Source of the DNA: Candidatus Desulfarcum epimagneticum
GTDB taxonomy: Bacteria; Desulfobacterota; Desulfobacteria; Desulfobacterales; CR-1
Direction: 5' to 3'
Length of the DNA: 64,000 nucleotides
Assembly: GCA_900659855.1 (NCBI GenBank)
Contig: CAACVI010000012.1
Span: 256,532 to 320,531 of the forward strand
Shown here: positions 6,393 through 50,722 of the stretch, in pieces
Layout of the letters: the number at the start of each line of letters is the position of its first letter
How positions within the stretch are numbered: the stretch's first letter is position 1
Notes under the pieces: generated by a model
The model's input: only the letters and a program-made list of their open reading frames with translations
Told to the model about the DNA's origin: nothing
The model's database searches: none
Program-made: the position numbers and the translations under genes

Positions 6393-6393
6393 C
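6361..6393. repeat. Collapsed remnant of the palindromic element (both termini, core deleted)
   Basis: GATAAACTCGTAAAAAATAGATCAGACGCCATC is the End1 TIR followed directly by the End2 terminus. Confidence 0.55.
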
Positions 6394-10941: not shown

Positions 10942-11091
10942 GATAAACTCGTAAAAAATTCGATCTACTGTGTTGCAGCGCTTATTTTTAATTGAGGCAT
11001 ACTACATGTATTGCCTCAATTAAAAATAACCACTACGCCTTGTATATCGAACTTTTTACGACGCTGTCCCGTGATTTTTTACGAGTTTATC
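10942..11091. repeat. Full 150-bp copy of the palindromic MITE-like element
   Basis: GATAAACTCGTAAAAAATTCGATCTACTGTGTTGCAGCGCTTATTTTTAATTGAGGCATACTACATGTATTGCCTCAATTAAAAATAACCACTACGCCTTGTATATCGAACTTTTTACGACGCTGTCCCGTGATTTTTTACGAGTTTATC. An extra module (AAGCTTGGGATGG..TTAAAGTTAAAAATCCGA) follows to about 11135. Confidence 0.85.
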
Positions 11092-11489
11092 AAGCTTGGG
11101 ATGGATGGTTAAAGTTAAAAATCCGAATTTTGCCGCATTCCTGCCGCGCTTTTCCGGTATGACTGAATTCCTTCCGGTTTCCTGAAAAAAACCCGGTGAG
11201 GAGTTGACGAGGACTGCGGCTTCACGATTTCCGCGCCACCGGTTCGGGTTGTCAGTGAGCCGTCACAGCCAGGGCGGAGCGCCCTGAAGTGTATGGAGAT
11301 ATTATCTCATTTCCTCGCATAAAACAATCAAAATCTATACAATCAAAGGCGACTGGACAATACGATTCAACGTGAAATCAAGGAAAATACCCGGGCCGAA
11401 AAAAACGAGCCGGATAAGTCCCGACCGGAAATCGAAGCGCTTGAGGCAAATCTTTGAGACTGCTTGAAAAAGGAGGAATAAAAAAACAA

Positions 11490-13260: not shown

Positions 13261-13481
13261 GGGGTTTGCTGTCCTGTTTTTTATGTTTGGGAATAATGGT
13301 GGATAAAATACTCTTGGTCTTTATCGTTGTCAAGCATTATTAGCCTGTCCCATTTTACTCCATTTTACTCGTTGTTGCCTCTTTAAACCGGAGACCGTGT
13401 TACCCCAAAAATACGTTTTTTTTGGATTTTTGTTGACCATATACAAGAAAAGAGTTGAAATATTATCCGCGTTATTCTAAA

Positions 13482-13610
13482 TTCATAAAATCGTAAAAAG
13501 TTTGACATACAAGATGTAGTGTTTTTTTATGAGAGATGGCATACATATAGTATGCCGGCCGAACAAAAGCCCACTGCAACGCAGCAGATCGGATTTTTGA
13601 CGATGCTGTC
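13482..13610. repeat. Variant (type-2) copy of the palindromic element, directly upstream of the RAYT-like gene
   Basis: ...AAATCGTAAAAAGTTTGACATACAAGATGTAGTG...GATGGCATACATATAGTATGCCGG...CACTGCAACGCAGCAGATCGGATTTTTGACGATGCTGTC. It shares the apex GGCATAC-N5-GTATGCC and arms with the copy at 32708..32863. Confidence 0.7.
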
Positions 13611-13864
13611 AATGATGGAGAATGTATAAATTATATTGTCTGCGACAATATATTCCGTAAACATAGTATGTTAAAACTGTTTGTGTGTTCAAAAGGTATG
13701 AAATGAAAATTTCCGTTATTTATAATCGAGACAGTAAAAGTGTTATCAATCTTTTTGGAATCCCTAATCGTGAAAAATATGGAAAAAAATCCATAGCCCG
13801 TATTGTTGATATCCTGAAAAAATTCGGCCATCAGGTAAAGGCTTTTGAAGGAGATAAAGACCTA

Positions 13865-15247: not shown

Positions 15248-16925
15248 TAATACCCAACCTGGAAAAGTTCATGCCTCGAGTGCTCAAAGGCGAGCTTCCT
15301 GGAATGGCGTTTAACCTTTCTTACGGCATTCAGGGTCATGCCCGTTATACCCATGTGCCTGGCATTCTGGAAATGGTGGGAATACCATATATGGGTTCCA
15401 ACCCTCTGGCCCACTCTCTCGCTCTTGATAAAGTCGTTGCAAAGATGATTTTCAGGCAAAATGACCTTCCCACACCTGATTTTTCAGTATTAAATGAGCC
15501 GGGATTTGACATGCCTAATCTTGATTTTCCGCTGATTGTGAAACCAAAGAACGAAGCTGTTTCTATGGGTATACGTATTGTTCATGATTTAAAAGAACTA
15601 AAAGATGCCGCAGGAGTTATCTTTGATCAATTCAACCAGCCTGTGTTGGTTGAACAATATATAGAGGGGAGGGAAATCAATGTTGGGCTTCTGGGAAATA
15701 ACCCTCCTGAAATACTACCTCCCTGTGAGATCACATTCGGAAACCAGGGACCACATATTTATACTATTGAAGATAAAAAAGGGAAATCCGGAAGAAAAAT
15801 CGACTGGATATGTCCGGCGCCAATAAGCCGGGAATTAACTGAAAAGGCCCATGATATTGCATTGCGAGCCTTCCAGGCTCTTGGATGTTATGACATGGCT
15901 CGTGTGGATATGCGGCTTGATAATAATGACAACCTTTACATACTTGAAATAAACAGCCTACCCAGCCTTGGTGAACATGGTTCCTATACGATTGCGGCAA
16001 ATCATGTGGGTTTGGATTTCCCTGCATTGGTAAACAGGATGGTAGAAGTTGCAAGCGCACGATACTTCGGGACCCCATCCCCGCCTGATATTCGGCATAA
16101 TAAAAAGAAACCTGAAGAGGCCATTTTCTCCTATGTTACACAACGTCGTGACCTTATTGAAAAAGCGCTGGAGAACTGGTCTTCTCTTTCCAGCCGGACA
16201 TCTGACCCTGTTGGAATACAGCTGGCTATAAAGAAGTTAGAAAAAAAGATGACGGAAATAAAAATGAAACCGGCCCCTCAATTCTGTAAAAGTCAGCTTG
16301 TCCATACCTGGGAGACAAAGAAAGGAATGGCCGATGGCACATTGCTTATTGTTCATTGTGACGTGCCCCTTGAGCTTGAAATGCCGAACCAGGGTTTCCG
16401 ACGGGAACCGGAATGGCTTTATGGTGAAGGTGTTGGATGTTCAAGAGCCCCAATGGTGGTGTTGGAATATGCATTGAGAGCTCTGAGACACCAGCGGCGG
16501 TTGCATAAACTGCCATTGGGGGTTTTATGTTATATGGATGAAGGCCGGGATGCCAGGTATAGTGAGGAAATCATTCGAGCAGCAGTATCCATATCAAAAA
16601 AAGTTATTGTTTTGAGGCCAGGAAGCTCATTAAATCATATAATTGTTCAAAGAAGAGGTCAGCGTAAATGCCGACTCATCGTCCAGGGCAAAGCTCGCAG
16701 GTTAGGCAAGAAAGACAAGCAGCCAGAAGTATTGTTATGGACCATGAAAAAATTAGATGAAATATCCAGACTTTCATCAACGAAAAATAAAATCGCTGTC
16801 TCATCAACCGAAATAAAAACAAAAAGTTATCCTATGTTGCTGCCACATCATGTTTCAGCGACACTATTACTGAGCTACTTGGATACAAAAACAGGAAATG
16901 AAACAGAAATAAGTATCAGGGAAAT

Positions 16926-18252
16926 CACTGGTGTCCGGTTTAAATGAATTTAAAACTTACAACACATTGAATATATAAGGTAAAATATAAAAACAGGGGT
17001 GTCAACCTCTTGATTTTCCCCAGACAATCTCGTATTCTCCTTTCATAAAATTTAAGAAAGGAGACACTCATGTATCGGGGAAGAATGATATTTTCACAAG
17101 TACTGGATTTTATGCCGAGACGACCATTTCGCAAATGTGTGAGCCGATATTCTGGAAACAAGCATATTCGCTCTTTTTCATGTTTTGACCAGTTTCTGTG
17201 CATGGTATTTGCTCAACTGACTTATCGTGAAAGCCTTCGAGATACAGTCCTGTGCCTGCGAGCCATTCATGAAAAGCTTCATCATGTCGGCATTCAGGGA
17301 AAATTGTCTCGAACTACTTTTTCCGATGCCAATGAAAAACGCGACTGGCGTATCTACTGCGATTTTGCCCAGGTCCTTATTGAACAGGCGCGAAGGCTTT
17401 ATGCAGATGACGATTTTGGTCTCCAGCTTAAAGAGACTGTCTATGCGTTGGATTCATCGACGATCAGCTTATGTCGGTCCCTTTTTCCATGGGCTCGGTT
17501 TAAATCCACTAAAAGCGGCATAAAGCTCCATACATTGGTTGATTTGAGAGGAAATATCCCCTCGTTTATTTCCATCACGGATGCAAAACTTCATGATGTT
17601 AACATACTTGACCAGCTATTGCCGGAGGCCGGCTCAATTTATGTGATGGACCGCGCGTATCTCGATTTTTCAAGGCTCTATAACATGCATCAATCCTTAG
17701 CTTTTTTTATTCTGAGAGCCAAACACAACACCAAACTTCGACGGCTATATTCAGCGCAAGTAGATAAGCGTGACGGCATCCTGTGCGACCAAACAGTACG
17801 ACCAGGCGGGAACCTTGCGGCAAGGGATTATCCCGAAAAATTGAGACGGATAAAATATCATGATCATAAAACCGATAAACGCTTAATATTTCTTACCAAT
17901 AATTTTATATTGAACGCCGGAACCATAGCCGATCTCTATAAATACCGCTGGCAGGTAGAATTGTTTTTCAAATGGATAAAACAGCATTTGAGAATCAAAA
18001 AATTTTTCGGTTATTCCGAAAACGCCGTAAAAATACAAATCTGGACCGCAATTTCAGCATATGTTCTCGTGGCAATCATGAAAAAACGTCTCTGCCTGGA
18101 GCAGAATCTTTACACAATATTACAGATTTTAAGCATTACTCTTTTTGAAAAAACACCAATATTTCAATTGTTTACCGAGCCGGTTTACAAAAGCAAGATT
18201 ACTCGCGGGCCTATACAATTGAATTTATTCGATATCTAACCGGACACTAGTG
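16926..18252 (+). mobile_element. IS4-family insertion sequence with 9-bp target duplication
   Basis: The TIRs match 14/15: CACTGGTGTCCGGTT (16926..16940) versus the reverse complement of 18238..18252, CACTAGTGTCCGGTT. Direct repeats CAGGGAAAT lie at 16917..16925 and 18253..18261. Confidence 0.85.
17070..18239 (+). CDS. IS4-family DDE transposase
   Basis: 389-aa ORF with the N-terminal IFSQVLDFMPRRPFRKCV (DUF4372-type) motif and a DDE core (...ALDSSTISL...YVMDRAYLDF...YRWQVELFFKWIKQHL). Confidence 0.85.
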   Translation: MYRGRMIFSQVLDFMPRRPFRKCVSRYSGNKHIRSFSCFDQFLCMVFAQLTYRESLRDTVLCLRAIHEKLHHVGIQGKLSRTTFSDANEKRDWRIYCDFAQVLIEQARRLYADDDFGLQLKETVYALDSSTISLCRSLFPWARFKSTKSGIKLHTLVDLRGNIPSFISITDAKLHDVNILDQLLPEAGSIYVMDRAYLDFSRLYNMHQSLAFFILRAKHNTKLRRLYSAQVDKRDGILCDQTVRPGGNLAARDYPEKLRRIKYHDHKTDKRLIFLTNNFILNAGTIADLYKYRWQVELFFKWIKQHLRIKKFFGYSENAVKIQIWTAISAYVLVAIMKKRLCLEQNLYTILQILSITLFEKTPIFQLFTEPVYKSKITRGPIQLNLFDI

Positions 18253-18629
18253 CAGGGAAATATTAAAAGGAAGTAAGTTTAAAGTCGATTTTGAAATAGT
18301 CTCCGACAGGCCGCCAATGAAAGACAGAAAAACAAATATGAGAATAGCAAAACCGATCATGGATATTTCTGAAAACTGGGATATACCGTTAAAAAAAACT
18401 TCTTCATTGTGGCCTTCTGTGGGAGGGGTCGTGTATGGAAAAGTGCCGGTTGTCTGCGGTATAGGGCCAACAGCACGGGATCTTTATACTCCGCAGGAGT
18501 CTGTTAATCGAACAAGTCTGATTCAACGAACACTTTTACTTGCAGAATTCCTCGTTAAAACTTTATAATTGTTTTTGTAACAATAAAAAAATCTGCGAAA
18601 ACGTATTTCAGATATCATGGGAAAAGTTT

Positions 18630-20246
18630 ATGCCGTCAAAAACAAAAAAAGAAATCAATACCGATTTTATTGATCCGAAAAAGGTAAAAATACCGGAACC
18701 TCAGCGGATTGCAGTCTCTCAATACGGTATGGTTTCAACAGCTCAATATAATGCAACCAGATCAGGTATGCAAATACTTGAGATGGGAGGAAACGCTTTT
18801 GACGCAGCAGTGGCATGCGCATTTTCGTTGGGAGTTTGTGAACCACAGGCATCAGGAATCGGTGGACAAACAATGGCTCTTCTTTATATTAAAAAAGAGG
18901 ATAGACTCGTTGCGCTTGACGGATCTTCAAGAGTCCCGAACCGAGCTCTTAATAAAGATTTTTCATCAAAAGTATCCCGTCTTCACGGATACCGGGCTGC
19001 GACTGTTCCCAGCACACCGGCTGTGCTATCATACATGAATGACCGTTACGGTAACCTCACACTGGCTGAAGTTATAAAACCGGCGATTCAAATTGCTGAG
19101 AACGGATATGCAATAACCGAACTCCAAAGAAAGCTGCAAAAACGAGAACTAAAAAATTTTTCAAAAGGGAATGCAGGTCAATTTTTTTTAAGGAATGGAG
19201 AAAAACCCTATAGCGTCGGTACGCTTTTTAAACAACCGGTACTGGCAAAAACTTATCAGAGGATTGCGGATGCCGGTATCGAAGATTTTTATACAGGGGA
19301 GATTGCTGAAATCATCCACAAAGATATGGATACTAATGGCGGCCTGATCCATAAGGATGATCTGGGGCAAATTCCTTATCCCATTGAACGAGAGCCGCTC
19401 ATCGGAAGACTGGGAAACATGATGGCACATACAATGCCTCCCCCAGGCGCAGGCAGAACTCTTATAGAAATGATCAATATCCTGAAGAAATTTCCTGTAA
19501 AGGATCGCAATCCAGACACACCGGAAGGCTCGCTGTTGCTGGCGGAAATTATTCGAAGAGCCCAACTTGATCGTAGGGATAGACCATTTGAAGCGAACTT
19601 CTATCCCCAGGTTCAGGATAGACGAATGGTCAGTAACGAATACTCTAAAATTGTTGCGCAACAAATAAAAACCCGCATAAAGTCCAGTGGCGAAACGACT
19701 CATTTGTCTGTTATGGATAAATACGGCAATGTTGTTGCCCTCACACAGTCCATAGAACGCATATACGGCGCAAAAGTGGTTACACCAAAGTTAGGATTTC
19801 TTTACAATAACTACATGAGCGCCTTGGAGTATAAAGATATTACTCACCCTCACTATCTTAGGCCAAATGCTGTTCCATGGGCATCAGTCGCGCCAACCAT
19901 TATATTCAAGTCAAAAAAACCATGGCTGGCAATCGGCTCACCCGGCAGTGAACGAATTGCATCATCAATTCTGCAAGTCCTTATCAGATTAAACCTTCAA
20001 TCCCCGTTTGACGCTGTGGCAGCGCCACGAATTCATTGTTCGTATGACGGAAAGGTCTCCCTTGAAGCCGCATTTATGAGAGATGATATCCCTGGTAAAC
20101 TCGAAAGCATGGGTTTCAGTATTGATATACGTGAACCCAATTCATTTTATCTTGGGTGTATTCAAATGGTAATGGCTGAGAATAATGATTTTATAGGTGT
20201 TGCTGATCCACGTAGAGACGGTTCGGCTGGAGGCCCGAAGCAATGA
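18630..20246 (+). CDS. ggt: Gamma-glutamyltransferase family protein
   Basis: In-frame ATG of ORF 18540..20246. GGNAFDAAVA...ASGIGGQ and the autoprocessing/nucleophile region SSGETTHLSVMDKYGNVVALTQSI are present. Confidence 0.8.
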   Translation: MPSKTKKEINTDFIDPKKVKIPEPQRIAVSQYGMVSTAQYNATRSGMQILEMGGNAFDAAVACAFSLGVCEPQASGIGGQTMALLYIKKEDRLVALDGSSRVPNRALNKDFSSKVSRLHGYRAATVPSTPAVLSYMNDRYGNLTLAEVIKPAIQIAENGYAITELQRKLQKRELKNFSKGNAGQFFLRNGEKPYSVGTLFKQPVLAKTYQRIADAGIEDFYTGEIAEIIHKDMDTNGGLIHKDDLGQIPYPIEREPLIGRLGNMMAHTMPPPGAGRTLIEMINILKKFPVKDRNPDTPEGSLLLAEIIRRAQLDRRDRPFEANFYPQVQDRRMVSNEYSKIVAQQIKTRIKSSGETTHLSVMDKYGNVVALTQSIERIYGAKVVTPKLGFLYNNYMSALEYKDITHPHYLRPNAVPWASVAPTIIFKSKKPWLAIGSPGSERIASSILQVLIRLNLQSPFDAVAAPRIHCSYDGKVSLEAAFMRDDIPGKLESMGFSIDIREPNSFYLGCIQMVMAENNDFIGVADPRRDGSAGGPKQ

Positions 20247-20935
20247 AACTACCAGTTCTGATTTCCGTTCCCCATGCCGGCTTAGAAGTGCCTCCTGAAA
20301 TGAAAAACATTTGCCAGTTATCTGAGAAGGAGATTATTGAAGATGGTGATGAAGGCGCTGCAGACATTTATTATCCTTTAGAAAAAGAAGTAAAAGCATT
20401 TGTTAAAACCGACATTGCCCGGGCTATAGTTGATATGAACAGGACTCCTGAAGATTTTAGTAAAGACGGTGTAATAAAAACCCATACATGCCATAATATA
20501 CCTATATACCAAAAGCCTCTTGCAATAGAGACCGCAAATGATTTGATCGAAAATTATTATCAGCCTTATCATCGAGCGCTTTCTTCAAAAACCAGAGATG
20601 TAAGAGTGGGTCTTGACTGCCACACAATGGCGGAATTAGGGCCATCCGTGGCGCCGGATACCGGAAAAAAAAGACCCGCTGCTTGTGTAAGTAATGCGGA
20701 TAAAACATGCGATATATCACTGATACAATCATTTGCCGAAATTTTACAAGATATGCTCCATCATGAGGTAGCCATAAATAATCCTTTTAATGGGGGATAT
20801 ATTATCAAAAAACACTCCTTGGAAATCCCATGGTTGCAGATTGAATTGTCCCGCGCTCATTTTTTAACAAACGTAGAAAAAAGCGTAGCTTTTCATAAAA
20901 CAATAGTTAAATGGATCGTTATTAACGGCATTTAA
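20243..20935 (+). CDS. N-formylglutamate amidohydrolase (FGase) family protein
   Basis: 230-aa ORF overlapping ggt by ATGA. The N-terminus LPVLISVPHAGLEVPPE...DGDEGAADIY...ARAIVDMNR and the later GLDCHTM are typical of PF05013-type enzymes. Confidence 0.7.
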   Translation: MKLPVLISVPHAGLEVPPEMKNICQLSEKEIIEDGDEGAADIYYPLEKEVKAFVKTDIARAIVDMNRTPEDFSKDGVIKTHTCHNIPIYQKPLAIETANDLIENYYQPYHRALSSKTRDVRVGLDCHTMAELGPSVAPDTGKKRPAACVSNADKTCDISLIQSFAEILQDMLHHEVAINNPFNGGYIIKKHSLEIPWLQIELSRAHFLTNVEKSVAFHKTIVKWIVINGI

Positions 20936-21152
20936 AAATTATTTTCATTATAAACACCACACTCGATAATTTTTTCTATAATCATATTTTTTTTAACATG
21001 GCTCCGTATCTGCTGTGTCACCAAGCGCTTGAGCCACCACAAGTATGATTGGCGTCCCCTTTTATCATTATAGAATTCGGATGCCTGCTTTAAACAATCT
21101 GTAAAAATGGCGCTTTCAGCCGTTCATCCTTACCGGTTTTAATCGGTGCTTT

Positions 21153-21386
21153 TTATCGTTGCCTCCATACATTTTTTTGACTACCGGCCGGATTTGTTTT
21201 CCAAATTAAATCAAGGGTCTTAGGATCGGCTATACTTCCGATTTCGTACTCAGAATTTCCCTTCATACAAGCACAAGGAAAAATCCTTCCTTGAAAGTCA
21301 ACAAAGAAAAGCCTCTTTCCCGCTTGGCAACCCTTCGAATCTGGAAAAGGCCGACAGGTGTAGAATGCCACATTATATTTAACCAA
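21153..21386 (-). pseudogene. C-terminal SPASM-domain remnant of a radical-SAM protein
   Basis: The 77-aa ORF contains C-x-x-...GC.AGK..FFVDFQGRIFPCAC, the SPASM Cys pattern. No radical-SAM CxxxCxxC core lies upstream; the reading frame runs into AT-rich non-homologous sequence. Confidence 0.5.
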
Positions 21387-21442
21387 GCGTAGGATTTTTT
21401 TCAGAATATATTGACGAAAGAATAAAATTATCAGAATAAATG

Positions 21443-21469
21443 AAGCCTCTCAGTGAGAGGCTTTTTTTT
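21443..21469 (+). terminator. Rho-independent terminator-like hairpin
   Basis: GCCTCTC-AGT-GAGAGGC (21445..21461) is followed by T8 (21462..21469). Confidence 0.6.
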
Positions 21470-21558
21470 ATGGGAAAAGGGCGGCCAAGTCTTTGGCAGG
21501 ACAAACCGCCCTTTTCCAAAACCAAGGGCTGAAACTTCCAGCCCTGCAAGGAGGTGTG

Positions 21559-22005
21559 ATGGTAATATTTATTTCCATAAAACTCAAGAAGCTTTTTGAA
21601 CAAGAGCGCGATTATAAATGGAAAAAGCCGAAGCAATGCCCCCGCTGCGGCGGATGCAGGCTGTGGGGGCATGGGTATGCGCCCGTTTTGTTTGACGGTT
21701 TCAGAAAACCGCTTCTGATTAAGCGCAATCGGTGTCCGGACTGCCATTGTGTGATACGTTTCCGGCCAAAGGGGTATTTCGGGCGGATTCAGGCGTCAAA
21801 GAATGCCATACGCTCATGCATATCCGGGAAATTAAAATATGCCAAATGCCCCGGCTCCATCAGCCGGAGCCGGCGGCGTCACTGGGTCATGGCCCTGACC
21901 CGGCGGATCAAGGCGCATTTCGGCGACACGTGGCAAAAAAGCATATTAAAGGGATTGAACTATCTTGCGTTCCTGGGTCATATTCCGGTGAGCCGTTCCA
22001 TTTAA
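21559..22005 (+). CDS. Zinc-ribbon protein, probable accessory gene of the adjacent transposition module
   Basis: In-frame ATG preceded by AAGGAGG. Two CxxC pairs: KQCPRCGGCRLWGHGY...RNRCPDCHCVIRF. Confidence 0.55.
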   Translation: MVIFISIKLKKLFEQERDYKWKKPKQCPRCGGCRLWGHGYAPVLFDGFRKPLLIKRNRCPDCHCVIRFRPKGYFGRIQASKNAIRSCISGKLKYAKCPGSISRSRRRHWVMALTRRIKAHFGDTWQKSILKGLNYLAFLGHIPVSRSI

Positions 22006-22126
22006 CGCCCGTCCATTTCCATTTTTCACCCTCCCCACCCAAGAGTGTCATTTACCGGCTTTTTTTTCTGTCGTAAGAAGGGAAAAGATAAAATGTGCGT
22101 CAACCCGGACAAAAAAAGGAGGCGTT

Positions 22127-23407
22127 ATGACCAAAGAGCAGAGAATGGATGTGGCGGTTTTTCGTTACGGTGTTATCAGTGATTTTGTAAACGGGCCAAG
22201 CCTGTCCCGTCAGGAAAAGCGGAGGCTTTTACAGGGCAAAAGCGAAAAAAAATGGCGGATACCCTTTTCTGAAAAGACCCGGATCAGCAAAAGCGGCATA
22301 TTGCGATGGATTCGTCTTTACGAAAAAAGCGGCTGTGATATCCGATCATTGTATCCCAAAGTCCGCGCGGACAAGGGAAAAAGCAGGGTCATAGATGATG
22401 ACACGGCGCTGGGTCTGGCTGAGCTGAGGAAACAGTTTCCCAAATCGACTGTGGCCGCTCTGATTGAAAAAATGCGCAAGGGAAAATCGGAGGCTTTCCG
22501 GCGCCCGCTTTCCCCGTCCACGGTTTACCGGTTTTTGAATCAGCGCGGGCTTATGGACATGACCCGGAAAACCCCGGAGGACAGGCGCAAGTTTGAGGCG
22601 GAGATGCCCAATGATTTATGGCAGAGCGATGTCATGCACGGACCCAAAGTTCTTGCCGACGGCAAAAATAAAAAGACTTATCTGATCGCCATCATAGACG
22701 ATCATTCCAGGCTGATCGTTCACGCGAAATTTTATTTCTCAGAAAATCTGGTCAACTATATGGACGCGTTTCAGGACGCGCTTTTGAAGCGCGGCCTGCC
22801 CCGAAAACTCTATGTGGACAACGGCGCGGCGTTTCGCAGCGTCCGTCTGGCTTATACCGCCGCCTCATTAAATATCGCGCTTATTCGCGCCCGGCCGTAT
22901 AAACCCCAGGGAAAGGGAAAGATCGAGCGGTGGTTTAAAACCGTGCGGTCGGGTTTTTTGCCTGACTTTCAAGGAGATACGATCAATGATATCAATTCTG
23001 CGCTGACCCGCTGGATCGGGACCCAATATCACCCAAAGAAACATGGGGCCACAGGCCAGAGTCCTTTCGAGCGCTTCACCGCCCATATGGAATGTTTAAG
23101 AGCCGCTCCCGCAAATCTGAAAGATCATTTTCGAATCACCGCAAGACGCAGGGTGGCCAAAGACCGGACCATCACCTTAAACGGCAGACTGTATGAGGGG
23201 CCTGTGGCCCTTATCGGCAAAAATGTGGAGCTTTGCTTTCATCCCGATGAGCCTGATTCGGTGGAGATTAAATATAAAAGCAGGTCTTTTGGAAACGCGT
23301 CGCCGGTCAACCTTGCCGTCAACTGCAGGGTTAAAAGAGCCAAAAACACCCATGCCGACATGGAGCCCGCCCCGGGTTCCAGTTATCATGGCGGAAGTCT
23401 TTTATAG
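22127..23407 (+). CDS. DDE (rve / integrase-core) transposase, Mu/Tn552-like
   Basis: 426-aa ORF with an N-terminal HTH region and the core NDLWQSDVMHG...YLIAIIDDHSRLIV...LYVDNGAAFRS...ARPYKPQGKGKIERWF. Confidence 0.8.
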   Translation: MTKEQRMDVAVFRYGVISDFVNGPSLSRQEKRRLLQGKSEKKWRIPFSEKTRISKSGILRWIRLYEKSGCDIRSLYPKVRADKGKSRVIDDDTALGLAELRKQFPKSTVAALIEKMRKGKSEAFRRPLSPSTVYRFLNQRGLMDMTRKTPEDRRKFEAEMPNDLWQSDVMHGPKVLADGKNKKTYLIAIIDDHSRLIVHAKFYFSENLVNYMDAFQDALLKRGLPRKLYVDNGAAFRSVRLAYTAASLNIALIRARPYKPQGKGKIERWFKTVRSGFLPDFQGDTINDINSALTRWIGTQYHPKKHGATGQSPFERFTAHMECLRAAPANLKDHFRITARRRVAKDRTITLNGRLYEGPVALIGKNVELCFHPDEPDSVEIKYKSRSFGNASPVNLAVNCRVKRAKNTHADMEPAPGSSYHGGSLL

Positions 23408-23416
23408 GGAGGCCGC

Positions 23417-24223
23417 ATGGATAATCACAGGGTTTTTTTCAGTTTAAAAAAAGAGCCGTTTATCTCGGATTTAAAGCCGAATGAGATGCTTGAAACCCAT
23501 GAGCTGATATCGGTTCAAAATCGCTTTGACTATGCTGTGGGACTGGGAGGCATCGGTCTTGTCACCGGCGAGATCGGAAGCGGAAAATCAACGGCTTTGC
23601 GTTACAGCGCCGCCATGCTTCACCCTTCCGAATATCGCTGCGTCTACGTGGTGGCCTCATCAGGTTCCATCATTGAGCTTTACCGGCAGATCATATCAAA
23701 GCTTCAGATATTTTTGTCCACCAACTCCAAAGCCTTGATGACGGACATGATTCGTAAAGAGATCAAAAAACAGGTCCTCGGGAAAAAAATAAAGCCGGTT
23801 TTGATCATAGACGAAGCGTCATTGCTGAGGCTGGAGGTCTTTGCCGAACTGCACACCATCACCCAGTTCGAAAAAGACTCCAAACCCTGGCTGCCCGTCA
23901 TATTGGCGGGGCAGTCCAACCTGATTGACAAATTGATGTATCGGGGCTCCGGCCCCCTGGCGTCAAGAATTATTGCCCGAAGTCATCTGGAAGGGCTTAA
24001 CCTGGATATGATGCGAAAATACCTGGCCCACCACCTGGGACTTGCCGGAGTGGAGACAAATCTTTTTGATGACACCGCCGCAAGGGCCATACACCAGGGC
24101 TCCGGGGGTCTTTTGAGAAAGGCCAACCACCTGGCAAGGGGAGCTCTTATAGCGGCGGCGGCCCAAAAATCAATGACAGTGAAAGCGGATCACGTCAGAC
24201 TGGCTTCCACTGAAATCTTTTGA
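23417..24223 (+). CDS. AAA+ ATPase, ExeA/TniB-like transposition helper
   Basis: 268-aa ORF with Walker A GEIGSGKST and Walker B VLIIDEASLL. It lies 10 bp downstream of the DDE gene. Confidence 0.8.
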   Translation: MDNHRVFFSLKKEPFISDLKPNEMLETHELISVQNRFDYAVGLGGIGLVTGEIGSGKSTALRYSAAMLHPSEYRCVYVVASSGSIIELYRQIISKLQIFLSTNSKALMTDMIRKEIKKQVLGKKIKPVLIIDEASLLRLEVFAELHTITQFEKDSKPWLPVILAGQSNLIDKLMYRGSGPLASRIIARSHLEGLNLDMMRKYLAHHLGLAGVETNLFDDTAARAIHQGSGGLLRKANHLARGALIAAAAQKSMTVKADHVRLASTEIF

Positions 24224-24633: not shown

Positions 24634-24975
24634 TTACTTGATATTATGAGATTCCAGAAGCGTCTTGACCGCTTCCTTCAGCATCGGCAGGTCATTTTCA
24701 ACCATCAACCAAACTTCTGAAAGATGTATGCCGTCATATTGATGAATCAAAACATCCCGTAGTCCCGCAAACTGCCTCCATGGTATTTCCGAAACAATCC
24801 GGCGTGTTTCTTCGGAAAGACGTTTGACCGCTTCGCCGATAATTTCAAAATTACGAATCACCGCATCCTGTGTCTTCGGATCATTTAAAAACAACGATTC
24901 TCCGTCAACCGTGTATTGTTGAATTTTTTCAATACTTTCTTTTATATGAATAAGGACAAGTCGTTGGTCTTTCAT
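24634..24975 (-). CDS. hepT: HepT-like (DUF86) RNase toxin
   Basis: 113-aa ORF with ...AVIRNFEIIGEA...IPWRQFAGLRDVLIHQYDGI (R-x4-HxY). It overlaps mntA by 4 bp. Confidence 0.85.
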   Translation of the reverse strand: MKDQRLVLIHIKESIEKIQQYTVDGESLFLNDPKTQDAVIRNFEIIGEAVKRLSEETRRIVSEIPWRQFAGLRDVLIHQYDGIHLSEVWLMVENDLPMLKEAVKTLLESHNIK

Positions 24976-25665: not shown

Positions 25666-25884
25666 TTATATTTCCTTCTGCAACCATATCAGAGGGTTTT
25701 CAGCTTCTATTTTTAAAAATCGCTTATTCCTTTTGGATGCGTTTATAAGCTTGTCATCTGTTGACAAAAAAATATCAGCATTCCCTCCCTCCGCGCAGGC
25801 AATATGCAAAGCATCAAGGGATTTCAGACTCTTGTAATGCTCTTGATTTTTTCTTCTTATACCACCTTTTCCTGACACGGTCAA
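25666..25884 (-). pseudogene. PIN-domain C-terminal remnant
   Basis: 72-aa ORF with ...SLDALHIACAEGGNADIFLSTDDKLINA. A recognisable N-terminal PIN half is absent. Confidence 0.4.
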
Positions 25885-26042
25885 ATTTTCATCCAGACAT
25901 ATCCCGCGCCAAAAATCAACCCCATGCCGCGCCGAACGCTTACAAAATTTTTATTCGACGAAAAGGCAAATAATGTGCTATGATTGGAACAGACATCGCA
26001 GGCATCCTTGGGATAGCCGTTTTTTGGGGAATGGAGAAAAAT

Positions 26043-26294
26043 ATGAAACAAATCCGTGAAATGAACAGCTGGAGGACATACAGCAAGGTTCTGGGAAATC
26101 GAATTTCAATCGAGCTGCCGAAAAATTATGACTTTCAGGAAGTTGAGGCGCTCATAATACCACGAAAAATAAAAACGGTTCCCGAGAACAGAATCGGGCG
26201 GAAAGAGTGGCAGGATGATTTTCTCAGTATTTCTCAATGGGATATTTCTGAAGATGACATCAGGATGAAATCATGGTCAATACCCGAGTTTTAA
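26043..26294 (+). CDS. Putative VapB-type antitoxin
   Basis: In-frame ATG preceded by GGAGAA. This small acidic protein's stop overlaps the start of the PIN gene (ATG 26273). Confidence 0.5.
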   Translation: MKQIREMNSWRTYSKVLGNRISIELPKNYDFQEVEALIIPRKIKTVPENRIGRKEWQDDFLSISQWDISEDDIRMKSWSIPEF

Positions 26295-26822
26295 CAGACA
26301 CTTCTGTGATAATAGATTTTGATGGCGTCGTAAAAAATCCGATCTACTGCGTTGCGGCGCTTATTTTGAATTGAGGCATACTACATGTATTGCCTCAATT
26401 AAAAATAAGCGCCACGCCTTGTATATCGCATTTTTAACTTAGCCATCCCAAGCTTTTTTACGAGTTTATCAGATTTTCTGAGAAAGAAAAACAAAAAAAA
26501 TTCGCTTCTGTGGCGAGTCAGAGAAAACAACGACTGTTTTATGTCGTCTGTCACCTTATTTGAATTGAAGTGTGGCGCGAAGACAGAAAAACACTCCAAA
26601 GATATTGGGAAACTTCTGAAATGGATCGAAACAATTCCCTTTGACAATGAGATCGCTGAAATTGCTTCGATAATATATCAGCGCCTGAAATTGAAGCATA
26701 AACTGATCGAATTCAGAGACATTTTTATCGCCGCCACCGCCATTTCGGAGAATCTTTGCGTTGCGACATTGAATATAAAGGATTTTGAAAGGATAAAGGA
26801 TATAGACTTAATAAAAATTTAA
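26273..26822 (+). pseudogene. vapC: vapC (PIN toxin) interrupted by a 150-bp MITE-like element
   Basis: The N-terminal 16 codons are MVNTRVLTDTSVIIDF (26273..26320). After removing 26321..26477 the frame continues LRKKNKKNSLLWRVRENNDCFMSSVTLFELKCGA...FIAATAI...ATLNIKDFERI, giving a complete PIN domain. Confidence 0.8.
26321..26470. mobile_element. 150-bp MITE-like palindromic element inserted in vapC
   Basis: The termini are GATGGCGTCGTAAAAAA ... TTTTTTACGAGTTTATC. It is flanked by direct repeats (A)GATTTT at 26314..26320 and 26471..26477. Confidence 0.85.
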
Positions 26823-28916: not shown

Positions 28917-29067
28917 GATAAACTCGTAAAAAGATTGCGGGACAGCGTCGTAAAAAGTTCGATCTACAAGGCGAAGCGGTTATTTTTGAGCGAGGCAATA
29001 CACTTAGTATGCCTCGCTCAAAAATAACCGCTTTAACGCCGTAGATCGGACTTTTTACGGCGCTGTC
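28917..29067. repeat. Full copy of the palindromic element (with compensatory stem changes)
   Basis: GATAAACTCGTAAAAAGATTGCGGGACAGCGTCGTAAAAAGTTCGATCTACAAGGCGAAGCGGTTATTTTTGAGCGAGGCAATACACTTAGTATGCCTCGCTCAAAAATAACCGCTTTAACGCCGTAGATCGGACTTTTTACGGCGCTGTC. Confidence 0.85.
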
Positions 29068-30320: not shown

Positions 30321-32687
30321 TCAGGCGCTCATAAAACTCATCAGCGCCTCATTCAAATCAAAATACGCTTTGGCTTCATCCAGGGAATTGATATCGTCCA
30401 TGCGGTCCCGGATCATCTCCGGGGTGGGAGGCGCGTCGTCGTCCCCCAGGCGGACGCCTTTGCCGGTGACAATGGACGCCTTGTTGTAATAGCCCATTCC
30501 GGCGTTAAAAATTTCCCCGGTTTCCCCGCACGACTCCCCGGCCAGGTAAAGGACCAGGGAAGAGACAAACCCGGGTTTGAGCTTTTCAAACAGGTCCGGG
30601 GGCAGCACGTCCTCGGTGAGGCGGGACGCGGCCAGAGGCGCCACGGCGTTGACCTTGACGTCGTATTTTTTGCCCTCCAGCTTCAGCGAATTCATCAGCC
30701 CGATCAAAGCCAGTTTGGCCGAAGAGTAGTTGGCCTGGCCGAAATTGCCGTACAGCCCGGCCCCGGAGGTGGTCATGACGATCCGGCCGTAGCCCTTTTC
30801 CTTCATGACTTTAAAGGCCGGCCGGGTCACGTGACAGGCGCCGTTCAAATGAACGTCCATCACGGATTTCCAGGTTTCCATATCGGTTTTGACAAAGCTT
30901 TTGTCCCGTAAAATCCCGGCGTTGTTGATCAGAACATCCACGCGGCCAAAGGCGTCCAGGGCGCTTTGAACGATGTTTTCCCCGCCCTGACGAGTGGCCA
31001 CGTTGTCGAAGTTGGCCACGGCCTGGCCGCCGTCCGCGCGGATTTCGTCCACCACTTTTTCAGCCGGAGAGGCCGAGCCCTCCCCGGAGCCGTCCCTGGA
31101 CCCGCCCAGATCATTGACCACCACCTTTGCGCCGCGACGGGCCAGATCCAGGGCGTACACCTTGCCCAGACCCCCGCCGGCGCCGGTGACGATGGCGACT
31201 TTTCCATCAAAATCCCGCTCCCGCATTTTCTCAGCGGCGCCGGGCACAGGCACGGCCTTCCAGAAATAATTCACCATGCCCCTTTCAGCGTCCACCCCTT
31301 TTCGCTTGAACTCCAGGGTCACGGGAAGGCCCACCTTCAACTCGTCCTGAACGCAATCCGTGAAATCGGCCATGAACCGGCCCCCGTTGTCAAACTGGAT
31401 GAGGCCGTACATGGCCGGGGGATCCACGGAGATGGAAAGCATGTCCGCGGTGAAGGTTTTGATTTTGGCCGGCTCGTCGGCGAACTCGAAATCTTTCTGG
31501 GTTCCCACGGCCCCGCAGGACGGGTTCACACAGATGTCCATTTTGGGAAACTGACGGGTCCCGCACTCCGAGCACCGGCCCCCCACCAGGCCCAGGATCA
31601 TCTTGTTTTTCCGATAAAGAACCGTCATGGCCGTCTGGGTGGGCGCCTCGGCCCGGATGCCCATCTCCGTCTGAATGAGGTCCCGGTACTTGAGCCATTT
31701 GGGATAATTGTCAAGGGCCTTTTTGTTTTCCAGGGTCCCTTTGAAGCCCTTTCTTTCGGGAAGATTCAAAATATGCTCCGTGACCTCAAAGTAAAGGGCC
31801 GAGCATCCCTGGCCGTATCCCGCCATGATGATCCGGTCGCCGGGTTTTGCCTCGTCCAGAACCGAGGCCAGCATGAGAAACGGGTGGGCCGCGCCGGTCT
31901 CGCCGCAGACATCGTGAAGGTTGTCCACGAGCTTTTCCGGTCCGGCGCCCAGTTTGGCCGCGATCTTTCGGTGGTCGCCTTTGAAAAAGCAGGGATAAAT
32001 CAGCTTGTCCACATCGTCCATGGAGATGCCGAGCTTGTCAAACAGTCCGTTGACGGCCTCGGGGACAATTTTGGCGTAACCCGCGTCCCGGGCCCATCTT
32101 TCCTCCCACATGTAGTCAAATTTGCGGTCCGCGGCCCGGTAATGGTCCACGAAATCGTAGGACACGGAGTAAGAGCCCTTGTATTCGGCGATGACGTTTT
32201 CGCGCCCCGTCAAAAGGGAGGCGGCGCCGTCGCCGAACCACATCTCGTAAAAATAGGCGGCCTTGGTCTCTCTTTTGTCCGTGGCCGTCACCAGGATATG
32301 GTCCTTTTCCCCGCTTTTGACGGACTCCAAAGCGGAGATCAGCGCCGCGGCCCCCACCCTCTGGGAGCCGGTGAAGTCGGATGTGATAAGGTCGTTTCTT
32401 AAATTGAGCCCCGACGCCAGAATGCCGGCGTTTTGCCGGTCGGCGAAGGGAAGCGTGGTGGAGGCCAGGTAAACAGCGTCCAGGCCGCCTTTGTCCTGCC
32501 CCGCCAGGCAGTCCCGGGACGCGGCCACGGCCATGGTGACGGAGTCCTCATCCCAGCCGCACATGGACCTTTCGCCCTGGGCCACCATCATGATGGCGGG
32601 CGCGAACCATCCCATGGCGGAAACAATGGACATGCGGTCAAGCCGCAAACGCGGAATATACGCCCCATATGAAGTGATGCCGATCAT
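30321..32687 (-). CDS. Tri-domain fusion: HMG-CoA-synthase/KAS-III-like + DUF35 (Zn-ribbon/OB) + MFE-2-type SDR
   Basis: Start ATG at 32687 (MIGITSYGAYIPRLR) is preceded by GAAGGAG. There is a central CSECGTRQFPKMDICVNPSCGA zinc ribbon and a C-terminal SDR (VAIVTGAGGGLG...NNAGILRD...YSSAK). Confidence 0.8.
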   Translation of the reverse strand: MIGITSYGAYIPRLRLDRMSIVSAMGWFAPAIMMVAQGERSMCGWDEDSVTMAVAASRDCLAGQDKGGLDAVYLASTTLPFADRQNAGILASGLNLRNDLITSDFTGSQRVGAAALISALESVKSGEKDHILVTATDKRETKAAYFYEMWFGDGAASLLTGRENVIAEYKGSYSVSYDFVDHYRAADRKFDYMWEERWARDAGYAKIVPEAVNGLFDKLGISMDDVDKLIYPCFFKGDHRKIAAKLGAGPEKLVDNLHDVCGETGAAHPFLMLASVLDEAKPGDRIIMAGYGQGCSALYFEVTEHILNLPERKGFKGTLENKKALDNYPKWLKYRDLIQTEMGIRAEAPTQTAMTVLYRKNKMILGLVGGRCSECGTRQFPKMDICVNPSCGAVGTQKDFEFADEPAKIKTFTADMLSISVDPPAMYGLIQFDNGGRFMADFTDCVQDELKVGLPVTLEFKRKGVDAERGMVNYFWKAVPVPGAAEKMRERDFDGKVAIVTGAGGGLGKVYALDLARRGAKVVVNDLGGSRDGSGEGSASPAEKVVDEIRADGGQAVANFDNVATRQGGENIVQSALDAFGRVDVLINNAGILRDKSFVKTDMETWKSVMDVHLNGACHVTRPAFKVMKEKGYGRIVMTTSGAGLYGNFGQANYSSAKLALIGLMNSLKLEGKKYDVKVNAVAPLAASRLTEDVLPPDLFEKLKPGFVSSLVLYLAGESCGETGEIFNAGMGYYNKASIVTGKGVRLGDDDAPPTPEMIRDRMDDINSLDEAKAYFDLNEALMSFMSA

Positions 32688-32707: not shown

Positions 32708-32863
32708 GATAAACCCGTAAAAAATGGATCGGACGGCATCGTAAAAATTCCATATGCTAAAATTTAAGCTACAAGGCGTAGTGGTTTTTTGAGAGTGAGG
32801 CCATACATATAGTATGCCGAAGGAACAAAAAACCACTGCGACGCATTTTTCTACGATGTCGTC
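32708..32863. repeat. Variant (type-2) copy of the palindromic element
   Basis: GATAAACCCGTAAAAAATGGATCGGACGGCATCGTAAAAATTCC...CTACAAGGCGTAGTGGTTTTTTGAGAGTGAGGCCATACATATAGTATGCCGAAGGAACAAAAAACCACTGCGACGC...CTACGATGTCGTC. Confidence 0.75.
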
Positions 32864-32889: not shown

Positions 32890-35007
32890 TCAGTTCAATT
32901 TGAACAGCTGCTCAATCAGCTGGGATTTCATGATATCGCCCGTGATCTTCAATTTTCCGGACGTATAGGCCTGCATGGCCGGAAGGCTCCCGTTCATCAT
33001 GTCCAGAAAATCCGCGTCCGGCATCTCAAGACAGCAACTCGGGTTGTCGTGGACCCCCGGCGAAATATCAAGGGCCCCGTCCTGGATGTCGCAGATCCAT
33101 TCGCACCCGTCGTTTCCGGTGATATTAAACTGAAACGTCACGGTTTTGCCTTTGGCGGCCTCCTCCATGAACTTGTCCCCCAGGGTCTCAAACACCTCGG
33201 TCACCGAGCCGGCGCCGGCGCCGGACGAGGCGCCGTCCCCTTCGGGTTTTTTCGTGAAGGCGGCCATCACATCGCCCACCTGCTCGCTCACCTGGCCGTA
33301 CTCCACCGCCCCTTTCATGGCGGTGATTTTCCCCCAGGCCCCTTTGAGCGCCTTTGGCCCGGGCGCCTCGGCGCCGTCTCCCACCACGGCCCCCGGTCCT
33401 GTGACCATGGCGGCCCGGTTGAAAAATCCCATGCCCGCGTTGTAAACGCTCCCGGATTCCCCGCAGTCCTCCGAGCACAGGTAAAGGGTCATGGGCGCCA
33501 CAAACTCCGGCTTCATTTTTTCAAACAGATCCGGGGGCAGCACGTCCTCGGTGAGCCGGGACGCCGCCACCGGGGCGATGGCGTTGACCTTGATGTCGTA
33601 TTTCGCGCCCTCCAGCCTCAGCGTGTTCATCAGCCCCACCAGGCCCATCTTGGCCGCCGAATAGTTGGTCTGGCCGAAATTGCCGTACAGACCGGCCGCC
33701 GATGTGGTGAGCACGATCCGGCCGTAGCCCTTTTCTTTCATGACTTTAAAGGCCGGCCGGGTCACGTGGTAGGCGCCGTTTAAATGAACGTCCAGAACCG
33801 CCTCCCAGGTCTCCGGCTCCATCTTGACGAAACTTTTGTCCCGTAAAATGCCGGCGTTGTTGATCACGATATCCACGGTCCCGAAATGGTCCAGGGCGGT
33901 TTTGACGATGTTTTCCCCGCCCTTCGGGTCGGCCACGTTGTCGAAATTGGCCGCGGCCTCTCCTCCCATGTCGCGAATTTCCTGAGCCACCTTTTCGGCC
34001 GGCGACGACGATCCGTCTCCGCTTCCGTCCCGGGCGCCGCCCAGGTCGTTGACCACCACCTTGCACCCGCGCTTTGCCAGCTCCAGGGCGTACACCCGTC
34101 CCAGGCCGGCCCCGGCGCCGGTGACAATGGCCACCCGGCCGTCAAATCGAATCTCGTCCGGCGTCGCGTCCCCGTATTCAAAGGTTCCGTTGGTGATGAT
34201 CTCCTCGCCGGTTTTGGCGTTGACGGTCTTCCACACGCCTTTGCCCTCTTCCGTTTTCCATACCAGGGTCTGGACGGGCTCGCCGGGGTACAGGGTTTTT
34301 GAAAAGCGGCAGTTGAATGTCCTGAGTTTTTCAGGCTCACCGGGCATCAGGCTTTCAATCACGGCCCGGCAGGCGTAGCCGTGGGTGCACAAACCGTGCA
34401 TGATGGGCTTTTCAAACCCCGACATTTTGGCGAATTCGGGGTCCACATGAAGCTGAAAGGTGTCCCCGGTGAGCCGGTAGATGAGGGGCTGATCGGCCGA
34501 CGGCGCGGCGTCCACCACGAAATCCGGCTCTCTTTGGGGAAACTCAAACTCGGATTTCGGGGCCGGGGGGCCGCCGAAATTCCCGTCCAGACGGGAAAAC
34601 ACCGTGATGATGTTGGTGAAAAGCTTCTGGCCGTTTGAATGGCGCGTCTCAAATTCGGCGACGATCAACGCCCCTTTGTCGCCTTTGTCATACATGTGGA
34701 TGACCTTTCCCTCGGTGGAAAGGGTCCCCTGGGGCGGAATGGGATGGTGGAACACCAGCTCCTGCTCGCCGTGCAGAATCCCCGCCAGATTGATATTGAT
34801 CTCCTTTGCGATGGATATGAAAAAATCCATCTCCACCAGAGCCGCGATGGAAAAGCTGGGAACGACCTTGATGTCTTTTTCATAGCAGTACTCCAGATCT
34901 GAAAAACCGGCGCCCACCCCCAAGGCGTAGAGCGCGACATCCTTCCAGTCGTATTCCCGGGTAAACGGCCCGATTTTTTTTCCGATTGCGTCTAAGTTAA
35001 GCGCCAT
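32890..35007 (-). CDS. Multifunctional-enzyme-2-like protein: MaoC/hot-dog hydratase (N+C) + SDR dehydrogenase + SCP2 domain
   Basis: 705-aa ORF. The N-terminal double hot-dog has ...YRLTGDTFQLHVDPEFA. The central SDR has VAIVTGAGAGLG...NNAGILRD...YSAAK. The C-terminal SCP2 has ...FQFNITG...LPAMQAYTSGKLKITGDIMKSQ. Confidence 0.85.
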   Translation of the reverse strand: MALNLDAIGKKIGPFTREYDWKDVALYALGVGAGFSDLEYCYEKDIKVVPSFSIAALVEMDFFISIAKEININLAGILHGEQELVFHHPIPPQGTLSTEGKVIHMYDKGDKGALIVAEFETRHSNGQKLFTNIITVFSRLDGNFGGPPAPKSEFEFPQREPDFVVDAAPSADQPLIYRLTGDTFQLHVDPEFAKMSGFEKPIMHGLCTHGYACRAVIESLMPGEPEKLRTFNCRFSKTLYPGEPVQTLVWKTEEGKGVWKTVNAKTGEEIITNGTFEYGDATPDEIRFDGRVAIVTGAGAGLGRVYALELAKRGCKVVVNDLGGARDGSGDGSSSPAEKVAQEIRDMGGEAAANFDNVADPKGGENIVKTALDHFGTVDIVINNAGILRDKSFVKMEPETWEAVLDVHLNGAYHVTRPAFKVMKEKGYGRIVLTTSAAGLYGNFGQTNYSAAKMGLVGLMNTLRLEGAKYDIKVNAIAPVAASRLTEDVLPPDLFEKMKPEFVAPMTLYLCSEDCGESGSVYNAGMGFFNRAAMVTGPGAVVGDGAEAPGPKALKGAWGKITAMKGAVEYGQVSEQVGDVMAAFTKKPEGDGASSGAGAGSVTEVFETLGDKFMEEAAKGKTVTFQFNITGNDGCEWICDIQDGALDISPGVHDNPSCCLEMPDADFLDMMNGSLPAMQAYTSGKLKITGDIMKSQLIEQLFKLN

Positions 35008-35089
35008 TCAAACCCTCCTTATGTTCCGGATTTTTATTTAAAAAAAATCCCCGCATGAGCGGCGTCATAAAATTTCATATGGTAAAATT

Positions 35090-35199
35090 GATGAACTCGT
35101 AAAAAAGCCGATTTTGGACTGTTTCCAAAATTCAGGTCTAATAATTTCAGTTGTTTATACAGACAAAAAATCTGTTTTTTGATTTTTTACGAGTTTATC
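35090..35199. mobile_element. 110-bp short variant sharing the element TIRs, with 6-bp target duplication
   Basis: GATGAACTCGTAAAAAAG...different internal sequence...TTTTTTACGAGTTTATC. AAAATT lies on both flanks (35084..35089 and 35200..35205). Confidence 0.75.
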
Positions 35200-35206
35200 A
35201 AAATTT

Positions 35207-35356
35207 GATGATCTCGTAAAAAAGCCTGGGATGGCTAAGTTAAAAATTCGATATACAAGGCGCAGCGGTTATTTTTAATTGAGGCAATACATGTAGTATG
35301 CCTCAATTAAAAATAACCGCTGTAACGCAGTAGATCGGATTTTTTACGACGCCATC
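35207..35356. repeat. Full 150-bp copy of the palindromic element (inverted orientation)
   Basis: GATGATCTCGTAAAAAAGCCTGGGATGGCTAAGTTAAAAATTCGATATACAAGGCGCAGCGGTTATTTTTAATTGAGGCAATACATGTAGTATGCCTCAATTAAAAATAACCGCTGTAACGCAGTAGATCGGATTTTTTACGACGCCATC. This is near-identical to the reverse complement of 26321..26470. Confidence 0.85.
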
Positions 35357-50676: not shown

Positions 50677-50722
50677 AATATTCCCCGATTGACATAGTAC
50701 CAAAAAATGGTACAATAATATT

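Follow-up and report, generated by a model that had tools for sequence, protein, structure and literature searches.

Candidatus Desulfarcum epimagneticum is an ectosymbiont of a magnetotactic protist, and the 64-kb stretch of its DNA analysed here (hereafter the window, with positions counted from its first letter) contains a vapC-type toxin gene that is split by a 150-bp sequence. The locus raises the question of what this sequence is, how it came to lie within the gene and by which enzyme it was moved. It is most probably a non-autonomous transposable element, i.e., a MITE (miniature inverted-repeat transposable element), that was inserted into a previously intact vapC gene and that depends on a DDE transposase acting in trans.

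The interrupted vapC gene and its empty sites

The locus is made up of the following parts, in which the orientation of the element is that of a related insertion sequence (IS) read from its left to its right inverted repeat (IRL to IRR).

26031..26294, plus strand: antitoxin gene (MEKNMKQIREM...), intact, overlapping the vapC start by 22 nt and co-linear with the genes found upstream in L001 and L003
26273..26320, plus strand: vapC 5′ fragment, codons 1–16 (MVNTRVLTDTSVIIDF), with the conserved N-terminal DTS motif
26314..26320: left target-site duplication AGATTTT, present as a single copy in the empty site of L001 (2931–2937)
26321..26470, plus strand (IRL-to-IRR): the 150-bp element, a MITE, whose closest sibling lies at 35207..35356 (92% identity)
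26471..26477: right target-site duplication AGATTTT, seen by direct reading and by blastn against L001
26478..26822, plus strand: vapC 3′ fragment, codons 17–130 and stop, within which a 93-aa open reading frame (ORF; 26541..26822) begins at the internal Met38

The ORF that opens at 26273 reads MVNTRVLTDTSVIIDF over its first 16 codons, continues into the element and meets a stop after 33 codons, and the PIN ORF at 26541..26822 lies in the +1 frame relative to it. Around the insertion the window reads ...GTGATAATAGATTTT / GATGGCGTCGTAAAAAATCC ... CTTTTTTACGAGTTTATC / AGATTTT CTGAGAAAG.... A first-pass annotation, made from the letters alone, had placed the break after codon 16 and the element at 26321..26470, and both the coordinates and the sequences hold. 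It had also proposed that removing the element with one copy of the flanking repeat restores an in-frame PIN gene. When 157 bp (26321..26477, i.e., the 150 bp plus one AGATTTT) were cut out in silico, a 393-nt ORF without a single internal stop was indeed obtained, continuous in frame with 26541..26822. The rebuilt 130-aa protein matches the Pfam PIN domain (PF01850) from residue 7 to residue 123 (E 2.3e-13), compared to an E-value of 6e-07 for the 93-aa fragment by itself, which is 100% identical to a protein of Ca. Desulfarcum epimagneticum (P0027). A protein database search with the vapC product returned 192 homologues, many of them exactly 130 aa long and several labelled as VapC toxins. 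The best 130-aa homologues reach 85% identity to the rebuilt protein at 100% coverage, and its junction (DTSVIIDF/LRKKNK) equals the homologue consensus in the alignment. Apart from the insertion, with its perfect duplication, the gene carries no other lesion and is free of stops and frameshifts.

With a PIN domain along the whole rebuilt protein and an overlapping small antitoxin gene upstream, the locus resembles VapBC type II toxin–antitoxin systems, and the homologues are annotated as VapC family. It differs from them in that the toxin gene is split and in that a Pfam search with the antitoxin (26031..26294) yielded no matches. Of the acidic residues in the PIN active site, the first belongs to the DTS motif. 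Since the insertion cuts this motif off from the rest of the protein and shifts the frame, VapC has probably lost its activity, with the antitoxin gene upstream of it still intact; a product re-initiated at Met38 would be without the DTS motif. The locus would then be a dated and mechanistically clear case of gene inactivation in Ca. Desulfarcum epimagneticum, with VapC lost and its antitoxin kept.

Intact vapC orthologues, which the first-pass annotation had suggested looking for, were found as uninterrupted antitoxin and vapC pairs at three metagenomic loci of other organisms rather than in a sister strain, i.e., L001 and L002 (85–87% DNA identity) and L003 (77–78%). In all three, an intact N-terminus (...GTGATAATAGATTTTCTCAGAAAG...) is present upstream of the called start. 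With blastn, window positions 26028–26320 align to L001 2645–2937 and window positions 26471–26820 to L001 2931–3280, so that 7 bp of L001 (2931–2937, AGATTTT) align on both sides of the insertion and are counted twice, as is characteristic of a target-site duplication. Carrying a single AGATTTT each, the homologous cassettes of L001, L002 and L003 are empty sites. A group of 93-aa VapC homologues (66–88% identity) had been suspected of being interrupted at the same site, but this was rejected because L001 and L003 are intact; their length is explained by the gene caller having chosen an internal Met.

Near the vapBC locus lie a HepT-like RNase toxin gene (24634..24975, minus strand) and a 72-aa ORF (25666..25884, minus strand) that covers no more than the C-terminal portion of another PIN domain (Pfam E 6.5e-4). 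Further toxin–antitoxin genes are thus neighbours of the vapBC locus, and at least one of them is truncated as well.

Ends, copies and target-site duplications of the element family

The 150-bp element has stops in every frame, and its longest ORF spans 33 codons. Its ends are terminal inverted repeats (GATGGCGTCGTAAAAAA vs. GATAAACTCGTAAAAAA) of a family consensus that is conserved across genomes, and its parts are as follows.

26321..26339, plus strand: left terminal inverted repeat GATGGCGTCGTAAAAAATC, found with a 27-mer motif search and compared with IS ends
26321..26447, plus strand: imperfect palindrome of 127 nt, a long hairpin with the conserved loop CATACTACATGTAT
26431..26447, minus strand reading: internal degenerate third repeat copy GATGGCTAAGTTAAAAA
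26454..26470, minus strand reading: right terminal inverted repeat GATAAACTCGTAAAAAA, found with a 17-mer motif search

The copy in vapC therefore consists of the left repeat, the palindrome whose right arm ends in the degenerate repeat, a 6-nt spacer and the right repeat, and the repeat copies within the MITE are spaced 22–24 bp apart. The internal repeat copy carries GATGGCTAAGT, and its GCTAAGT variant is kept in element copies from other genomes. The hairpin is predicted to be very stable, both as RNA (–62 kcal/mol, z –8.8) and as DNA (z –8.0). An Rfam search with the element gave nothing at gathering thresholds, the relaxed matches being generic miRNA hairpins. Across the family, the ends are ~19-bp inverted repeats of the form GAYRNNNYCGTAAAAA(A/G)(T/G)C around a long hairpin, and the elements measure ~100–230 bp, with a median of 145 bp.

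The window holds ~11 full or partial copies. The 17-mer GATRAACYCGTAAAAAA of the right-end type was matched 11 times in the window (0.06 expected), and the 27-mer of the other (left) end type nine times (0.00 expected). Most element copies are intergenic, and a density of ~1 copy per 6 kb is enough to influence intergenic regions, annotation and assembly. Apart from the copy in vapC, the more complete copies are the following.

10942..11091, plus strand: sibling copy without duplication, after which the remnant of another copy runs to ~11131
13484..13610, minus strand: diverged sibling copy without recognisable duplication, 224 bp from the start of the RAYT-like gene
28917..29067, minus strand: sibling copy without duplication
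32708..32863, minus strand: diverged sibling copy without duplication
35090..35199: element of 110 bp that shares the terminal repeats but has another core, with AAAATT on both sides
35207..35356, minus strand: the sibling most similar to the copy in vapC (92% identity), duplication unrecognisable
50504..50676, plus strand: sibling of 173 bp that has an additional internal repeat and AATATT on both sides

Solo or truncated remnants were also seen (432..504, 6361..6393, 11092..11131, 54745..54790 and 58901..58916), in the form of half a hairpin with one end, an end-to-end deletion derivative, or two ends without a core.

The duplications that the first-pass annotation had reported for two of these copies are exact (AATATT at 50498..50503 and 50677..50682; AAAATT at 35084..35089 and 35200..35205). 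Its broader claim, a duplication of fixed length, was examined on 147 elements whose boundaries were fixed at GAT...ATC, with flanks re-paired between elements as the control. An exact 6-bp flank duplication was found for 65 of the 147 elements (44%, vs. 1.0% in the control) and an exact 7-bp duplication for seven, the vapC copy among them (~5%, vs. 0.07%), and a further view of the 6-mer flanks with one mismatch gave 21 elements. In a first set of 42 elements, the corresponding numbers were 16 exact 6-mers and three exact 7-mers. Against the control frequencies, chance is excluded as the source of the duplications. A length of 6 bp is thus confirmed as the norm, but it is not strict, given the minor 7-bp class; likewise, the (A)GATTTT repeat that had been described as 6 bp at vapC is present but measures 7 bp. 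From the 65 exact 6-mers, a palindromic target consensus AAWWTT was obtained.

Position 1: A 62 (n = 65)
Position 2: A 47, T 11 (n = 65)
Position 3: T 28, A 20 (n = 65)
Position 4: A 27, T 20 (n = 65)
Position 5: T 48, A 12 (n = 65)
Position 6: T 58, A 7 (n = 65)

The AT-rich and TT-ending preference that had been anticipated is therefore apparent from this tabulation. Together, the AGATTTT pair at vapC and the statistics on the 147 elements give the family the duplication of characteristic length expected of a MITE. As the ends are nearly always bordered by A and T, an assignment of the ends as TGAT...ATCA (IS3- or Tn552-like) with a 4–5 bp duplication was considered and ruled out by the outer positions of the 6-mers. 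In the non-consensus cases, T/T matched four times and A/A seven times, vs. 5–6 mismatches. Since the two sides agree even at non-consensus outer positions, the data favour a duplication that is truly 6 bp long, with GAT...ATC as the element ends.

Elements were also seen in tandem with exactly one 6–7 bp spacer between them (L094 5596–5918, L024 145–320, L053 980–1254, L016 3016–3307, L008, L211 and L258). The L094 spacer (TTTCTT) is identical to both outer flanks, and in L008, L211 and L258 the doublet lies within one shared duplication. These arrangements suggest either repeated insertion at the same site or dimers that move as such.

Correia elements duplicate TA. In their length of ~150 bp, non-coding nature, inverted repeats and duplication, the elements described here resemble known bacterial MITEs (Correia, Chunjie, Nezha, RUP and ERIC), as they do in their many, mostly intergenic copies, their long hairpin and their occasional insertion into a gene. 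They differ from Correia and Chunjie in having GAYRNNNYCGTAAAAA ends and a 6-bp (rarely 7-bp) AAWWTT duplication. Specifically, Chunjie of Geobacter measures 178–235 bp, with repeats of 21 bp and a duplication of 9 bp (PMC3184786), and the family of the vapC element falls outside this description, with ~19-bp repeats of another sequence, a 6–7 bp duplication and a shorter median size.

A candidate autonomous partner and rival routes of mobilisation

An autonomous partner was sought among the fetched loci as a solo terminal repeat followed by a long ORF. In the metagenome contigs L196 and L148, a terminal repeat is followed ~100–130 nt further on by homologous ORFs of ~580–600 aa, each a single ORF with the domains DUF772, DDE_Tnp_1 and DDE_Tnp_1_6. 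Fetched copies of this IS measure 1880–1903 bp, are 73–87% identical to each other and are bounded by ends such as GACGNCCTCGTAAAAAGTCA and its inverted complement (also written GAYGNNNYCGTAAAAAGTCA). Exact duplications flank the IS in L261 (AAAATT/AAAATT) and L287 (AATGAT/AATGAT), and other IS flanks (AATATT, AATAAT, AAGATT and ATAATT) match between contigs. The IS and the MITE therefore coincide in their ends, duplication length and target preference, so that an element with the same ends, the same duplication and a transposase of its own does exist, i.e., in metagenome contigs. Two other approaches yielded no transposase: distant repeat pairs in L086, L070 and L063 enclosed only housekeeping genes, and ORF clustering around repeat motifs brought up only ABC ATPases, sigma-54 activators and similar genes.

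In its domain architecture, single ORF, ~1.9-kb size and terminal inverted repeats, the partner IS resembles the IS1182 family. It differs in its regular 6-bp AAWWTT duplication and in scoring under the curated cut-off of its best NCBIfam model (IS1182, 165.2 bits vs. 270), which makes it not a recognised member; the ISNCY_1 model scored 69.8 bits against a cut-off of 325. The ISDol1 group of ISfinder, from the Desulfobacterales host Desulfococcus oleovorans, comprises elements of 1.6–1.9 kb with 6–7 bp duplications. The partner IS fits this ISNCY/ISDol1 group in size, duplication length and host range, a likeness to be read as a lead only. Its transposase has 4,964 database homologues, chiefly on ~2-kb contigs and with Syntrophales, Smithellaceae, Deltaproteobacteria and Omnitrophota among the named sources. 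Knowledge of the family should help annotation, e.g., of the many ~2-kb 'transposase-only' contigs and, on the side of the MITEs, of spurious small ORFs in hairpin repeats.

A transposition route can be proposed from these features, in which a DDE transposase encoded elsewhere would bind the ~19-bp inverted repeats GAYRNNNYCGTAAAAA(A/G)(T/G)C and excise or copy the element. The element ends would then be joined to strands cut 6 bp apart (7 bp at vapC) at an AT-rich, AAWWTT-like and roughly palindromic site, and gap repair would leave the flanking direct repeat. Because the IS shares both the terminal repeats and the 6-bp duplications, the ~580-aa transposase of this 1.88–1.90 kb IS1182-like element is the most likely enzyme, and the two together provide a testable transposase–substrate pair. 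We infer that an enzyme of this IS family moved the copy now in vapC, and that a copy of the IS exists or existed in the Ca. Desulfarcum epimagneticum genome.

Several observations weigh against this account. The empty sites are other organisms' copies of a mobile toxin–antitoxin cassette and not a syntenic allele of a sister strain; in the element at vapC, left and right terminal repeat agree at only 12 of 17 positions; and five of the eight full-length window copies (10942, 13484, 28917, 32708 and 35207) are without a duplication. Window copies moreover diverge by 6–25%, so that the family is not obviously active at present, nor is it obviously young in the window. On the side of the partner, the left flank differs from the right one in most IS contigs (loci L261–L287). 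As flanks are shared between contigs of related samples, we attribute this to probable chimeric assembly across copies of a multicopy IS. The similarity between MITE and IS is confined to the terminal 16–19 bp, and the MITE therefore did not arise by simple deletion from the IS copies observed. Finally, a homologue of the IS1182-like transposase was not found within the 64-kb window. The first-pass proposal that the element is mobilised in trans by a DDE enzyme is thus upheld as far as a matching IS with such an enzyme occurs in metagenome contigs, but in Ca. Desulfarcum epimagneticum itself the mobilisation would have involved a transposase from outside the window.

The window does carry other transposase genes, in a mobile-element gene cluster that spans 12328..24223; for none of these four do the ends match those of the MITE.

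12328..13260, minus strand: RAYT-like Y1 transposase
13863..15249: IS630-like element with 27-bp inverted repeats
~16926..18291: IS4-family element with DUF4372
22127..23407: rve + Mu_C transposase, followed by an AAA_22 ATPase at 23417..24223

The RAYT-like gene raises the possibility that the element is a REPIN-like hairpin moved on single-stranded DNA by a RAYT (HUH, Y1) transposase. This Y1_Tnp/REP_Tyr_transposase-like gene lies between the element copies at 10942..11091 and 13484..13610, and the element does share with the REP/REPIN–RAYT systems a highly repeated, hairpin-forming nature, with a conserved loop, covarying stems, one strand that folds better in 19 of 19 copies, and sister-family cores that resemble inverted REP doublets. 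With ~11 copies per 64 kb, however, two copies around one gene are expected by chance, and the Y1 match scores under its NCBI cut-off (67 vs. 80 bits). REPINs are without such inverted repeats or duplication, whereas the family has both, its ends being inverted repeats common to a DDE insertion sequence. HUH/Y1 insertion (IS200/IS605, REP/RAYT) is not known to duplicate its target; the exact 6-bp duplications seen for 44% of the family copies therefore largely refute a RAYT-driven origin, which we consider very unlikely. Much the same low probability is given to mobilisation by one of the window's own IS630-like, IS4 or rve + AAA_22 transposases, even if their genes are only 2–13 kb away. Transposons with an rve transposase and an ATPase, such as Tn552, produce 6–7 bp duplications and have tandem ~23-bp repeats that are bound by the transposase, to which the 22–24 bp spacing of the MITE repeat copies may be compared. 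Yet the rve + AAA_22 genes have no flanking MITE-like repeat, and clear element ends were not found for this pair. Neither the ends of the IS630-like element (TATAGTGCGTCGCAAATGAATTGATAC) nor those of the IS4 element (GTAAGTTT...) are related to the MITE ends, and the first 140 fetched loci (~1 Mb) contained zero homologues of these transposases despite dozens of MITE copies, whereas a different IS has exactly matching ends and duplication.

That the 157 nt are instead removed or bypassed at the level of RNA or translation in an intron-like manner, leaving vapC functional, would agree with a gene that is otherwise free of lesions, with a protein 85% identical to intact homologues and with an insert that forms a very stable hairpin. 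We hold it to be extremely improbable, since the insert brings stops in every frame and a +1 shift, all Rfam families remained below threshold with only miRNA-hairpin noise, most copies are intergenic, and inverted repeats with a duplication are hallmarks of a transposon for which a cognate IS exists. Coincidence or faulty assembly as the source of the flanking repeat is left with hardly any probability. In its favour are an AT-rich target of low complexity and the fact that metagenome-derived assemblies may be chimeric, as with the IS contigs, but the repeat matches in seven of seven positions at the exact element boundaries, its removal restores both the frame and the homologue sequence, a 7-mer match has a control frequency of only 0.07%, and the same signature recurs in other copies. 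Insertion of a MITE by a DDE transposase acting in trans is thus by far the most probable explanation for the split vapC gene.

Hairpin cores, orientation and distribution of the family

Further observations concern the hairpin core of the MITE. In an alignment of 19 copies, 27 of 43 stem pairs show compensatory changes around the conserved loop CATACTACATGTAT. In all 19 copies (which share ancestry and are not independent), the strand that leads from the right to the left end gives the better RNA fold, because it has G·U pairs at the places of C·A mismatches in its complement. Flanking genes point in the direction of the element in 27 cases vs. seven, as counted on the window copies at 6361, 13484, 26321, 28917, 32708, 35090/35207, 50504 and 54745 and on loci L016–L252. 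By our own reading of the positions, the right-end repeat faces the start of the neighbouring gene in all scorable window copies, at ~10–40 nt from the start codon in several cases and up to ~220 nt in others, and the left end of the element abuts the stop of the preceding gene. It is plausible that this orientation bias reflects selection against placing the stronger hairpin in mRNA.

The same ends enclose hairpin cores of at least five unrelated kinds, spread over several anaerobic phyla. At least four cores other than that of the vapC copy occur with the same terminal repeats and 6-bp duplication (L004, L008, L014, L027, L042–L049, L053, L063, L078, L084, L087 and L094), with the motifs GTCATTCCGGCGAAAGCCGGAATCCAG, CACAGAG-rich, CCCCTCCCC-rich and GTCACCCTGAGCGAAGCGAAGGGTC; by eye, they resemble common REP-like hairpins. 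Covarying stems, strand-consistent wobbles, co-orientation with genes and ends shared by at least five cores suggest that the core is perhaps not a passive passenger. The family might accordingly be viewed as a vehicle, mobilised by a DDE enzyme, for structured RNA or DNA modules with an effect on adjacent genes, or as a hybrid between a DDE-type MITE and a REPIN. We regard this as rather unlikely; if it were true, the modules could serve as transcript stabiliser, terminator, processing site or antisense RNA.

Related elements were met in scans of public genomes, metagenomes and viral contigs, i.e., in metagenome-assembled genomes (MAGs) of Desulfobacterales, in Nitrospirota, Syntrophales and Smithella, and in many sediment metagenomes; groups with further copies were also recorded as Desulfobacterota, Nitrospirota and Syntrophia. 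Full-length relatives of the vapC element in other Desulfobacterales MAGs are ~70% identical. A scan of the genome collection with GATRAACYCGTAAAAAA revealed homologous elements in Desulfobacterota among the matches listed, but this query was too unspecific, as the same matches included many chance or coding hits in Bacteroidota. The viral-contig scan found a few MITE copies and no IS, and a BLAST search of the plasmid collection with the terminal repeat returned chance matches only. The terminal repeat sequence is printed in none of the literature searched, and neither the MITE family nor its IS1182-like partner seems to have been described, although both are of a familiar kind. The present data define the ends, the AAWWTT target and the probable transposase of an apparently unnamed MITE/IS family, one very common among anaerobes of sediments.

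Two direct-repeat pairs in the window (30426..30725/33361..33660, 74% over 300 nt; 49025..49105/49850..49930, 93% over 81 nt) lie inside adjacent long ORFs, and have the look of paralogous genes in tandem, not of mobile repeats.

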